From a virus (taxonomy: Duplodnaviria; Heunggongvirae; Uroviricota; Caudoviricetes), in IMG/VR virus record IMGVR_UViG_2913123054_000005, positions 1 through 37,915 of that record: DNA of 37,915 nt; one strand, given 5' to 3'. A program made the position numbers and the translations under genes. Of this stretch, positions 1-4,233 are shown piece after piece (within the stretch, counting starts at the first letter, position 1; every line of letters starts with the position of its first letter). The notes under the pieces are model-generated. The model was not told where the DNA came from, ran no database searches, and saw only the letters and a list, made by a program, of their open reading frames with translations.

Positions 1-1038
1 TTAACGCTTATCAGCCACCAGCTTGAGCGCATGTTCCAGCACGTTAATGTCAGCGCCCGCTTTATGGGCATTTTCACTTAAATACCGCCGCCACTGACGC
101 GCGCCGGGAATCCCCTGGAACAGCCCCAGCATATGCCGGGTGATATGACCGAGATACGTCCCCTGGCTGAGTTCACGCTCAATGTACGGGTACATGGCGC
201 GCACCACTGCCACCGGGTCGGCATCGGTATCCGAGGAACCAAAAATCTCACGATCCACCGCCGCCAGAATGCCTGGGTTTTGATACGCTTCACGCCCGAC
301 CATCACGCCATCCATATGTTGCAGGTGTGCTTTAGCCTCTTCCAGTGACTTGATGCCGCCGTTAATCGACATAGTCAGATGCGGGAAATCACGCTTCAGT
401 TGATAGACGCGCGGGTAATCGAGCGGCGGGATCTCACGGTTTTCTTTTGGGCTTAAACCGGAGAGCCAGGCTTTACGCGCGTGGATGATAAACATCTCGC
501 ATTCGCCTTTGCCGGAAACGGTGTCGATAAAATCACAGAGAAATTCATAGCTGTCCTGGTCGTCAATGCCAATACGCGTTTTCACCGTCACTGGAATCGA
601 CACTACATCGCGCATCGCTTTTACGCAGTCAGCCACCAGTTGCGCATTCCCCATCAGGCACGCGCCAAACATGCCGTTCTGTACCCGGTCTGACGGGCAG
701 CCGACATTCAGGTTGATCTCATCATATCCGCGCGCTTCTGCCAGCTTCGCGCACTGCGCCAGCGCCGCCGGATCGCTACCGCCCAACTGCAACGCCACCG
801 GATGCTCTTCTTCACTGTATGCCAGGTAATCACCTTTACCGTGAATAATCGCCCCTGTGGTCACCATTTCGGTATAGAGCAACGTATTACGGGAGAGCAG
901 ACGCAGGAAATAACGGCAGTGTCTGTCCGTCCAGTCGAGCATGGGAGCAATGCTAAACCGAGAATTCCAGTAAACACCAGTTTTTTCAGGCATCACGCTG
1001 GTTTGATTAATTTTTTGTGTTTCATGATTATCGTGCAT
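1..1038 (-). CDS. dusA: tRNA-dihydrouridine synthase A (complete, 345 aa)
   Basis: Full-length ORF; translation has the Dus-family TIM-barrel flavoenzyme look ([16 protein letters not shown]..., NLNVGCPS). Its start codon abuts the prophage integrase. Confidence 0.85.
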
Positions 1039-1126: not shown

Positions 1127-2224
1127 ATGGCGTACTATAACATAGAGAAACGACTAAAATCCGATGGCACACCACGCTATCGCTGTAATGTGATTATCAA
1201 AGAAAAAGGTGTTATCACTTACAGGGAAAGCAAAACATTCCCTAAACATGCTCATGCCAAAACATGGGGCACACAGAAAGTGATGGAATTAGATCTATAT
1301 GGCATTCCATCATCAAATGCAGTTGACGGACTTACAGTCCGTGACTTACTACACAAATATTTAAATGACCCAAATGCCGGAGGTAAAGCAGGCCGTACTA
1401 AAAGATATGTGCTAGAACTGCTTATGGATAGTGACATCTCCGCGATCAAACTATCTGAACTGACAGAAAATGACGTAATTGAACATTGCAGGCTAAGAAA
1501 CAACGCTGGCGCAGGTCCAGCAACAGTCAGCCACGATGTTAGTTATCTTGGCAGTGTTCTGGATGCGGCCAAACCTGTATACGGAATTAATTACACATCA
1601 AACCCGGCGAAAAGTGCTCGTCCATATTTACTTAAACTTGGTTTGATTGGTAAATCATACCGTCGTAATCGTAGACCAGCATCTGATGAACTGGACATGC
1701 TCATTGAAGGCCTTCAACAACGATCTACTCATAAATGCTCAAAAATTCCGTTCGTTGATATCCTCAAATTTTCTGTGTGGTCCTGTATGCGAATCGGAGA
1801 AGTATGCCGGTTACGATGGGAAGATCTCGACCAGGAACAAAAATCTATACTCGTAAGAGACAGGAAAGATCCACGCAAAAAGGAAGGCAACCACATGAAA
1901 GTAGCCTTGCTTGGGGAAGCCTGGGATATCGTCCAACGACAGCCCCAAAAATCGGAATTCATTTTTCCATATAACAGCACTTCTGTTACTGCGGGATTTC
2001 AGAGGGTAAGAAGCAAATTAGGTATTAAGGATCTGCGATACCATGATTTGCGTAGAGAAGGGGCAAGTCGCTTATTTGAGGCTGGTTTTAGTATTGAGGA
2101 AGTCGCCCAGGTTACAGGGCATCGTTCATTAAACGTGCTATGGCAGGTATATACCGAACTGTATCCGAAATCTTTACATAATCGTTTTGAAGAGCTCCAA
2201 AGGAGCAGAAATAAGACCTCTTGA
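1127..2224 (+). CDS. int: Tyrosine-type site-specific integrase (dusA-associated)
   Basis: 365 aa; C-terminal catalytic region with H-x-x-R (YHDLRREGAS) and later GHRS...Y motifs; divergent from and adjacent to the dusA 5' end. Confidence 0.85.
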   Translation: MAYYNIEKRLKSDGTPRYRCNVIIKEKGVITYRESKTFPKHAHAKTWGTQKVMELDLYGIPSSNAVDGLTVRDLLHKYLNDPNAGGKAGRTKRYVLELLMDSDISAIKLSELTENDVIEHCRLRNNAGAGPATVSHDVSYLGSVLDAAKPVYGINYTSNPAKSARPYLLKLGLIGKSYRRNRRPASDELDMLIEGLQQRSTHKCSKIPFVDILKFSVWSCMRIGEVCRLRWEDLDQEQKSILVRDRKDPRKKEGNHMKVALLGEAWDIVQRQPQKSEFIFPYNSTSVTAGFQRVRSKLGIKDLRYHDLRREGASRLFEAGFSIEEVAQVTGHRSLNVLWQVYTELYPKSLHNRFEELQRSRNKTS

Positions 2225-2272
2225 CACTGTTTATCCATACAGTTAAAAATAATACTGTATACAAACACAGTA
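2221..2272 (+). promoter_or_regulatory. Promoter with -35 TTGACA and two tandem LexA (SOS) boxes CTGT-N8-ACAG upstream of the dinI-like gene
   Basis: ttgaca at 2221-2226; box 1 cACTGTttatccatACAGt at 2225-2242; box 2 tACTGTatacaaacACAGta at 2253-2272. Confidence 0.7.
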
Positions 2273-2285
2273 TAGAGGGACTTTT

Positions 2286-2534
2286 ATGCGTATTGAAATC
2301 TGCATAGCCAAAGAAAAAATGACTAAAATGCCAACCGGTGCTGTGGATGCGTTAAAGGAAGAATTAACCCGACGCATCAGTAAACGTTATGACGATGTAG
2401 AGGTGATCGTAAAAGCCACCAGCAACGATGGCCTTTCTGTTACACGCACCGCAGATAAGGATTCTGCAAAAACATTTGTTCAGGAGACTCTGAAAGATAC
2501 CTGGGAGTCTGCTGACGAGTGGTTTGTTCACTAA
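2286..2534 (+). CDS. dinI: DinI-like DNA damage-inducible protein
   Basis: 82 aa; [11 protein letters not shown]...[16 protein letters not shown] closely resembles the DinI family as recalled from memory; preceded by LexA boxes. Confidence 0.8.
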
Positions 2535-3087: not shown

Positions 3088-3645
3088 TCAGAAACCTATC
3101 AAAATACATGAACCACCAGAAATAAAATCACTGGCGCGAGAAATAATGGTTGATGTCGGTCCTGTTCCAACATTTATTGCAAACGTGGTAATTCTCCCGC
3201 TGGTTGGTTCATATCCGGCACCCACTGCAAAGCCTAAAATTCCCCCAGGGAAAGGAATAGGTAAGTTGATAACCTGGTCACCATCATGCGGGGGGATCGG
3301 CACCCATTGAATAATTTTACCCGGTAGTTTTTGCCAGTAACGTTCTGACTGGAAACTGCTCATATCGGGAATATAGTTAATATCACTGGTACCAACTGGA
3401 CGTTTTGCAGCTTCTTTTAACTTAAGGAAGAGTGGTAGTGCTTCCCTTAGCTGGTCATGTCTCGATTTATCAAGTGACAGCCCGGCGTCTTCAACTATTC
3501 CAGCAAGTTCCTCCTGCAACATATCAAAGTAGTCATCATCCAGATCGGTGGCAGGCGTACCGGTCTGGGGGTTGCCACGGGTAAAACCGTTCTTACCCGC
3601 GCCGAACTTATCCTTCTGCGCGGTTTTCGTGTCTATACGATGCAT
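3088..3645 (-). CDS. Putative tail fiber protein (short)
   Basis: 185 aa, Gly/Pro-rich C-terminus; sits between a baseplate gene and Tfa. Unusually short for a fiber. Confidence 0.5.
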   Translation of the reverse strand: MHRIDTKTAQKDKFGAGKNGFTRGNPQTGTPATDLDDDYFDMLQEELAGIVEDAGLSLDKSRHDQLREALPLFLKLKEAAKRPVGTSDINYIPDMSSFQSERYWQKLPGKIIQWVPIPPHDGDQVINLPIPFPGGILGFAVGAGYEPTSGRITTFAINVGTGPTSTIISRASDFISGGSCILIGF

Positions 3646-3648
3646 GAA

Positions 3649-4233
3649 TTACTCCGGATATTTAAAAATTACGTAGGTATGCGACGGGCAGAGTTTGTTA
3701 AGCACACACTCGACAACGGTGTCGCCCCAGATACGCAGTGCGGAATCACAGGGATCGCCACATGTCATCCAGGTGGTGTTGGTGGCGGCTGGCATGTTGA
3801 CCTGCCAGTAATACCGCCATTCCGGTGCATTCACCGCGTCAGTACAGGCCGATGAGCAGGTGAACGTGCTTTTATCGTATCGCGTGATGGTGGCATCTGG
3901 TCTGCCCAGGGCAGCAAGCTGTGCAAGATAAAAATCCTCGTTGATGCCGCCCGCCAGGTTAACCTTCGCATCCAGCCGTTGCTGACGCTGGAGAAGGGTC
4001 TGTGTCCCTGCGGGAATACATTCATCCGGCAGGCCGCACAGACGCTCCCAGCGATTTATCAGTTCGGTGGTGGTGCGCGGATCCAGCTCCCGCATCAGGG
4101 CATCCGCACGCTGATGAACGCGGGTTAATGACGGTGCCGCACCGGCAATCGCCGGATCGCTGGCTGACCACGCCGGACCGGGCGGCAACAGTGCTGACAA
4201 CAGGCGAATGTAATCATCGTTTGTCACGTCCAT
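3649..4233 (-). CDS. Baseplate/tail protein, Mu gp48-like (tail protein I family)
   Basis: 194 aa; synteny at the end of a Mu-like baseplate module. Confidence 0.55.

Follow-up and report, generated by a model that had tools for sequence, protein, structure and literature searches.

The DNA considered here (the window) comprises 37,915 nucleotides of the IMG/VR virus record IMGVR_UViG_2913123054_000005, assigned to the Caudoviricetes, and beside its integrase gene lies a small gene, here called dinI-like, whose product resembles E. coli DinI. In all likelihood this gene is the centre of a self-contained phage accessory cassette, a ‘moron’, made up of a sigma-70 promoter, two LexA operators, the gene itself for an 82-amino-acid DinI-family protein, and a structured 3′ untranslated region (3′UTR) with a terminator, the whole acting under host LexA. 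The first-pass annotation of the window had proposed two LexA boxes, a consensus -35 hexamer and, directly downstream, a DinI-family gene next to the integrase of a prophage, and every one of these proposals is borne out by the evidence that follows.

A predicted promoter with two LexA boxes

Only 61 bp separate the integrase gene (1127-2224) from the dinI-like gene (2286-2534). A search of the whole window, on both strands, for CTGT-N8-ACAG gives exactly two matches, CTGTTTATCCATACAG at 2227-2242 and CTGTATACAAACACAG at 2255-2270, both of them in that spacer. Is this more than coincidence? The count by itself is not significant, as at least two matches turn up in 8 of 100 shuffled windows (mean 0.42), but an estimate from the shuffle density puts the chance of both falling in one 61-bp spacer at about 2e-7, which is significant. 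Taken as 20-mers, box 1 (CACTGTTTATCCATACAGTT, 2225-2244) agrees with the consensus TACTGTATATATATACAGTA at 15 of 20 positions and box 2 (TACTGTATACAAACACAGTA, 2253-2272) at 17 of 20, and the box centres are 28 bp apart. When scored with a heterology-index matrix compiled from 25 boxes of E. coli, box 1 has 5.65 and box 2 4.83, and the same matrix gives 5.15 for the recA box, 5.21 for that of sulA and 5.19 for that of E. coli dinI. The published indices for these three are 5.0, 5.4 and 4.8, respectively (PMC11228462), and it is because the matrix reproduces them within about 0.9 that its ranking is trusted. The matrix scan revealed no other LexA site in the prophage window, the next best scoring 15.95. 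Both boxes therefore resemble LexA operators of the E. coli type in having a CTGT-N8-ACAG core that is AT-rich at its centre and a heterology index that lies within the functional range.

The -35 hexamer, at 2221-2226 on the + strand, is the consensus TTGACA, and embedded in it is the TGA stop codon (2222-2224) of the integrase gene. It was detected in a promoter scan and the promoter is also annotated in the GenBank record of phage mEp460. The predicted -10 region, at 2244-2250 on the same strand, is either TAAAAA, with a 17-bp spacer, or AAAAAT, with an 18-bp spacer; the scan itself pairs TTGACA with AAAAAT (18-bp spacer, 10 of 12 matches), the overall arrangement being TTGACA-N17/18-TAAAAAT, and divergent homologues have a TAAA-type hexamer at the equivalent place. 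Box 1 fills the spacer between the two hexamers, its 20-mer overlapping both, and box 2, downstream of the -35, begins 3-4 nt past the -10 and covers the predicted transcription start at about 2256-2258, i.e., the operators overlap predicted promoter and start alike. A Shine-Dalgarno sequence, GAGGGA at 2274-2279 (+ strand), can be read 6 nt upstream of the ATG. From the quality and position of the operators, together with the phylogenetic footprint and the precedent in homologous prophage genes that are both described below, we infer that the dinI-like promoter is SOS-inducible.

A DinI-family protein with the RecA-contact residues

The product of the dinI-like gene (+ strand) matches the Pfam DinI family (PF06183) over all of its profile positions, 1-63 of 63, with an E-value of 1.1e-19 and 70.9 bits against a cut-off of 24.2, and matches E. 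coli DinI (PDB 1GHH and 7YWA) over its full length with an E-value of 3.7e-13 and 49% identity. An AlphaFold2 model of moderate confidence (mean pLDDT 67.6) has the element order E-H-H-E-E-H, and the single alpha/beta domain with a long C-terminal helix that is characteristic of the DinI fold. When the model was compared with the PDB by Foldseek, 1GHH and 7YWA came top (TM 0.69-0.72, probability 1.00), the remaining matches being to unrelated proteins with E about 0.1. On profile and model together the 82-amino-acid protein is to be counted a DinI-family member.

For E. coli DinI the residues that contact RecA include a hydrophobic pocket of L13, L21, W71, W77 and F78, and an acidic patch of E24, E69 and D76 (PMC9926225). 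Their aligned equivalents in the window protein are M15, L23, W73, W79, F80, E26, D71 and E78, so that all eight are identical or conservatively replaced, and by homology the protein is predicted to bind RecA in the groove of its filament. The protein has no N-terminal extension, and between its stop codon (2534) and the terminator (2603-2646) there is no open reading frame. The gene appears from its sequence to be monocistronic, with no antirepressor attached, and a search of the prophage window for a LexA-controlled antirepressor found none.

Conservation, spread and the boundaries of the cassette

The module of integrase gene, promoter and dinI-like gene is 97-99% identical at the DNA level in phage mEp460, and equally close in SKA5, PhiR40_1, Lys8385Vzw, phiSTEC1575-Stx2k and 1720a-02. 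At least 80% of a 1.7-kb query spanning the integrase and dinI-like genes is contained in 719 of 5426 complete E. coli genomes (~13%). Copies in IMG/VR retain promoter and boxes unchanged even where the sequence upstream of the -35 is swapped.

How general is LexA control in the family? A survey of Enterobacterales, with one genome per species, returned 80 DinI-family loci, of which 73 have one or more LexA boxes in the 150 bp upstream; in most of the other seven the codon assumed to be the start is not a start codon (CTA or CTG). Two boxes are present in 15 of the 80. The two-box layout, with the boxes ending ~41 and ~13-15 nt before the ATG, recurs in the clade of 82-amino-acid prophage proteins (56-99% identity), and the chromosomal-type dinI genes (41-51% identity) have a single box ~19 nt before the ATG.

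The promoters of 12 loci of the dinI-like clade were aligned, the source genera being Escherichia, Shigella, Pantoea, Trabulsiella, Mixta and Erwinia and the proteins ranging from 58 to 99% identity. The -35 hexamer is invariant in all 12, and the invariant columns are solely TTGACACTG, CAG, (C)TG, CAGT and the start codon. The alignment thus leaves a phylogenetic footprint that coincides exactly with the -35 and the four LexA half-sites. Upstream of the -35 each locus has unrelated sequence, and homology between cassettes begins exactly at the -35, from which it follows that the cassette starts at its own promoter. Its downstream junctions fall around the hairpin and terminator considered below. 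Own promoter, own terminator, mosaic boundaries at both, and a place between the integrase and tail-fibre genes are the attributes of a phage moron. In the divergent loci too the neighbours are phage genes, for tail-fibre assembly, Arc-like and HicB-like proteins and, in one locus, a protein like P22 Ant. What is new here is modest, namely that the two-operator layout is conserved and that the cassette boundaries are defined exactly.

The locus with the Ant-like neighbour (L090) is from Trabulsiella guamensis. Its dinI-like gene, at 2001-2246 of that locus, belongs to the two-box clade (65% identity), and downstream on the same strand, at 3248-4132, is the gene for the P22 Ant-like antirepressor, with ORF6N and P22_AR_C domains. 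The arrangement suggests that an antirepressor may, in some prophages, be expressed from the same LexA-controlled promoter, as happens in Gifsy.

A conserved structured element in the 3′UTR

Downstream of the dinI-like gene, at 2542-2635 on the + strand, is an element of ~95 nt that stands out by conservation, covariation and predicted RNA fold. It consists of a stem, P1, in which 2556-2561 pairs with 2595-2600, a loop core, CATTCAATACTCGCACTATCGAACG (2566-2590), and a hairpin, P2, at 2601-2638 (core 2603-2635). P2 is followed by TTTTTCTTTTT, a T-run evident from the sequence, and the two are a predicted intrinsic terminator of the dinI-like transcript (2603-2646, + strand) that starts 68 nt past the stop codon and faces the stop codon (2650) of the convergent tail-fibre assembly gene. 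A simple terminator scan missed it, probably due to a bulge in the stem. The fold of element and terminator as RNA has an energy of -29.7 kcal/mol with z = -3.4.

The element is more conserved than the coding sequence that it follows: its core is identical in loci whose proteins are 70-72% identical, and it also follows dinL of phi80 (the copy at L285 2001-2102), where it is 83% identical although the proteins share just 30%. The invariance of the core in loci L164-L283, i.e., in most of the loci fetched, is a consequence of the search pattern. For its two helices, 86% of cells in the alignment are paired versus 28-57% in slid controls, and compensatory changes are seen in 14 of 20 pairs versus 7.0 +/- 1.6 in shuffles. 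G-U and A-C counts are 26 and 19, and many copies are without the T-run. Of 5426 complete E. coli genomes, 5412 have the element, the median being 3 copies. Neither is it tied to dinI. It occurs without such a gene in the b region of lambda, between ea31 and ea47 (J02459 24162-24256 complement; L284), at the end of the Qin prophage of K-12 (L286 3001-3101) and in the ecpE-ykgJ interval (L287 3501-3587).

Does it belong to a known class? An Rfam scan of the whole window at gathering thresholds left the element unmatched, the only match in the window being to STnc100 at 32865-33087, and a permissive scan of 2150-2750 gave only matches at chance level, as it did for the lambda copy. Several candidate identities were considered and set aside. 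AgvB and AsxR lie 3′ of PR′ (PMC4104026), the Pas small RNAs are restricted to pathovars and have different neighbours, and EcOnc27/STnc100 lies downstream of stx2. One frame across the element is open, but it lacks any start codon ahead of 2626 and 1-nt indels separate the homologues, so that it is not taken to be coding. A site for integration host factor (IHF) in the loop was discounted as a poor match, judged by eye, to the IHF consensus. A search within the window for base-pairing targets of the conserved loop gave only chance 9-mers.

Two side observations concern this element. Overlying the hairpin on the - strand (2604-2694) is a sub-threshold Rfam match to CssrB, Shigella small RNA B (19.3 bits, E 0.13); the same hairpin is matched in lambda, and similarity between terminators is probably what is being detected. 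Where the element occurs without dinI it is preceded by a conserved block of ~110 nt (GTCCGCT..GGCACATAGCAGTCCTAGGGACAGTGGCGTA.AGTCATAGATGGTCGGTGGGAGGTGGTACAAATCCTCTCATGCAAAAAATA), found in lambda at about 2390-2500 of L284 and in many IMG/VR loci. That this block might be tRNA-like was considered and dropped, as ARAGORN made no call on the lambda block and there was no Rfam match.

Relation to known systems

The Gifsy, PhiKO2, phiOS31, phi80 and 186 Tum precedents show the finding to be of an already known kind, namely that of LexA-regulated dinI homologues in phages and prophages. The dinI homologues of Gifsy-1/2/3 are LexA-controlled and their products accumulate after mitomycin C (PMC3121763; PMC8072944). 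As in the window, a LexA box overlies the promoter of a DinI-family gene in a prophage, and LexA-dependent induction has been demonstrated with mitomycin C or nalidixic acid. However, a single box, ~19 nt before the ATG, is present in the Gifsy genes where the window cassette has two, dinI there heads an operon with a small antirepressor and irsA whereas the window gene is monocistronic by its sequence, and the Gifsy repressors are not cleaved whereas the repressor in the window has an S24 domain.

Also among the closest is gene 21 of mEp460 (JQ182728 / NC_019716), with its counterparts in SKA5, PhiR40_1, Lys8385Vzw and 1720a-02, which are within the identity range already given for the module; the LexA boxes, unlike the promoter, are unannotated in the mEp460 record. 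The tail partners of the module differ, being a lambda-like side tail fibre in mEp460 and a Mu-like myovirus tail in the window prophage. In phi80 (dinL), PhiKO2 (a din-like gene) and Serratia phiOS31 (p60), a DinI-family gene adjoins tail-fibre genes, to which it is opposed, and has a LexA site upstream. The phi80 record has an annotated predicted LexA site, the TTGACACTGT...ACAG-TATAAA layout is as in the window, and the same 3′ element follows; the differences are that dinL is of the MsgA-like branch, at 30% identity, and that it has a single box. The din-like gene of PhiKO2 is reported to be LexA-regulated, and for phiOS31 a LexA box is noted (PMC7556043).

The chromosomal dinI of E. coli shares with the window gene its fold, RecA-contact residues and LexA control, and differs from it in sequence (at the 49% identity given above), in its single box of the chromosomal type and in being without the conserved 3′ element. 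LexA control and DinI-like sequence are likewise combined in Tum of coliphage 186 and in the split tum genes that Fels-2 and PSP3 have, though there an antirepressor, by which a non-cleavable repressor is inactivated, is fused to the DinI-like part or lies next to it (PMC3121763), and the window gene has no antirepressor. On both counts, then, an antirepressor being absent and the repressor having an S24 domain, the window cassette is not a LexA-controlled antirepressor module of the 186 Tum or Gifsy GfoA-GftA type. Lastly, the LexA-controlled dinI mRNA of Klebsiella pneumoniae has a long structured 3′UTR ending in an intrinsic terminator (PMC10907235). Its small RNA product, DinR, is Klebsiella-specific and chromosomal, and the comparison with the 3′ element of the window is of structure and conservation only. 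It is for such homologues only that LexA binding or induction by damage has been demonstrated (PMC3121763, PMC8072944, PMC10907235).

A LexA-domain-only protein in the same prophage

In the nin region of the prophage, between the genes for RusA and a Dam-type methylase, is a 108-amino-acid open reading frame (27787-28113, - strand) that matches the LexA DNA-binding domain in Pfam (1.7e-18) and residues 4-69 of E. coli LexA (1e-15). It has neither a cleavage site nor an S24 domain, and retains the recognition-helix residues S39, N41, A42 and E45, which are base-contacting residues in the structure of LexA with DNA. Its counterparts in SfV, SfII, SfIV, mEp460, cdtI and Stx2c phages are 95-99% identical. 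From these features it could be a non-cleavable LexA mimic. A functional study of it was sought in the literature and none found.

What might the cassette do?

The prophage repressor is relevant to this question. The CI-type protein encoded at 31511-32137 (+ strand) has Pfam Peptidase_S24 (1.6e-27) and HTH_3 (3.5e-09) matches, and since it combines a helix-turn-helix with an S24 domain it should be of the RecA-dependent self-cleaving type, unlike the Gifsy repressors. A RecA-groove binder would therefore bear on its induction, and the repressor is a likely RecA-dependent target whose cleavage could be modulated by the DinI-like protein. That the dinI-like gene tunes prophage induction, as suggested at first pass, is thus mechanistically reasonable on the basis of the genes present.

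The sequence of events envisaged is as follows. In an undamaged lysogen, dimers of host LexA on box 1, over the -35 and -10, and on box 2, over the start, would exclude RNA polymerase. On DNA damage, RecA filaments would lead to LexA self-cleavage, both operators would be cleared and the DinI-like protein would be made, probably at the level of damage at which recA and sulA are derepressed, as both operators are strong. The protein would then occupy, by homology, the groove of the RecA filament, on the same elements, in the L2 loop and the basic patch, on which LexA, UmuD and CI-type repressors depend. Cleavage of the slow substrates, i.e., the prophage's own S24-type CI, the CI-type repressors of co-resident prophages, and UmuD, would be limited, with the consequence that induction would require sustained damage. 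Such a brake on induction and on UmuD processing is the preferred reading, and within it nothing leans so much on inference as the direction and size of the effect.

Several considerations weigh against this account. The -10 hexamer is weak whether it is TAAAAA or AAAAAT; for this cassette start site, LexA binding and induction are predictions; and the heterology matrix was compiled for this analysis, albeit one with which published values were reproduced. The terminator scan found no terminator between the integrase and dinI-like genes, so that read-through from int could express the latter independently of LexA. With regard to effect, non-polar dinI deletions in Gifsy-1 and Gifsy-3 left induction unchanged (PMC3121763), Gifsy prophages being ones in which antirepressors, not cleavable repressors, are used. 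Further, DinI at stoichiometric levels stabilises RecA filaments (PMC9926225; Lusetti 2004, as cited there), which could favour rather than restrain induction.

This last point leads to the most serious alternative, in which regulation by LexA is the same and the effect is the opposite: the DinI-like protein would mainly stabilise RecA filaments, as E. coli DinI does at moderate concentration, prolong or sharpen SOS and promote CI cleavage, in a positive feedback. A phage could benefit from being committed once damage is severe, the lengthening and stabilising of RecA filaments by DinI is seen by cryo-electron microscopy and electron microscopy (PMC9926225), and all the RecA-contact residues are conserved in the window protein. 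Nevertheless, the groove elements that lambda CI requires are also occupied by DinI (PMC9926225), from which occupancy should compete with CI, overproduction of DinI reportedly inhibits coprotease activity (Yasuda 1998, quoted in 10.1101/2023.06.20.545734), and the Gifsy dinI deletions altered induction in neither direction (PMC3121763). On balance, positive feedback is a real but lesser possibility. A more basic challenge is that the palindromes are there by chance or serve another use, e.g., integrase or IHF binding near the prophage end, with the gene being constitutive or expressed by read-through from int. The number of motifs, not significant by itself, and the want of a terminator before dinI would permit this, but the boxes are co-located in one promoter and score far better than any other site in the window, and it is exactly the half-sites that are invariant across genera when the flanks, integrase included, are replaced. 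This explanation is already disfavoured, and its probability is slight in the extreme.

Two further alternatives draw on the other features described. Might the selected product of the LexA-controlled promoter be in part RNA, the 3′UTR (2542-2646) being either a released or a cis-acting regulatory RNA like DinR? The conservation of the element beyond that of the coding sequence, including after phi80 dinL, the covariation of both its helices, and the fold, with hairpin and U-run, that it has in the window are all in its favour, and there is the precedent of the Klebsiella dinI mRNA, which yields the Hfq-dependent small RNA DinR that represses ftsZ (PMC10907235). Against this, the element often lies, as in lambda, Qin and ecpE-ykgJ, without an upstream dinI or LexA box; the T-run is missing from many copies; the transcribed strand is not revealed by the G-U versus A-C counts; the element has neither an Rfam family nor an evident target in the window; the search pattern itself accounts for the invariance of the core in most of the loci fetched; and the element could be a recombination linker or merely a hairpin for termination or stability. 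An RNA product of this sort is accordingly rather unlikely. More doubtful still is that the dinI operators are also, or mainly, read by the 108-amino-acid LexA-like protein of the prophage, which would re-close dinI and other SOS promoters after induction and so put the SOS regulon under the phage's own control. Its match to the LexA DNA-binding domain, with the recognition helix kept and the means of cleavage gone, would suit it for this role, it co-occurs with the dinI cassette in mEp460, the cdtI phage, PhiR40_1 and phiSTEC1575, and the prophage has no strong LexA sites other than the dinI boxes. But tight binding by LexA needs dimerisation through the C-terminal domain, in place of which this protein has a 40-residue tail; the literature yielded no functional data for it; the two-box dinI promoter is widespread, co-occurrence having been seen in the four phages named; and host LexA suffices to explain the boxes.

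Prophage setting

A near-identical locus in E. coli MS1679, as annotated by PGAP, is a complete prophage located between dusA and zur, from which the window can be placed as the left-hand 38 kb of a lambdoid/e14-like prophage inserted in dusA. The MS1679 prophage has a Mu-like myovirus tail, an HK97-type head, lambda-type lysis genes, Q, a nin region and a CI/Cro/CII immunity region. In the window, dusA (1-1038, minus strand) is upstream of the integrase gene. The tyrosine integrase encoded by the latter (+ strand; Pfam Phage_integrase 7.6e-21, and so annotated in MS1679) is 98% identical to that of mEp460. From 2650 onward, on the minus strand and convergent with the dinI-like gene, are genes for tail-fibre assembly, tail fibre and a Mu-like baseplate.

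A prophage junction in the 5′ part of dusA is indicated by a 17-nt match, at ~935-951, to the far prophage end in copy L003, and upstream of int, at 1068-1100, are AGGTTCCC/GGGAACC repeats that could serve the integrase as arm sites. The STnc100 match (RF02076; + strand) that the Rfam scan gave has 48.3 bits against a gathering score of 47 and adjoins the immunity region; STnc100 is a prophage small RNA family that is discussed also downstream of stx2 in O157 phages.

Implications

A brake on induction by prophage DinI proteins is an idea already in the literature, and the present cassette is therefore a well-documented example rather than a new principle. If there is a new result, it might lie in the widespread 3′ element and the LexA-domain-only protein. 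The element would be a functional RNA or DNA element that, fused to the LexA-controlled dinI promoter, would form an SOS-induced riboregulator and, with the LexA-domain-only protein, a phage-run SOS sub-circuit, a proposal put forward as a long shot.

If the brake operates, lysogens bearing the cassette would need more sustained DNA damage for phage release, and both the induction of neighbouring CI-type prophages and UmuD-dependent mutagenesis could be damped, which bears on Shiga-toxin release and on responses to quinolones. Related dinI cassettes are present in many more E. coli genomes than the ~13% with the int-dinI module, Stx phages being among their carriers.

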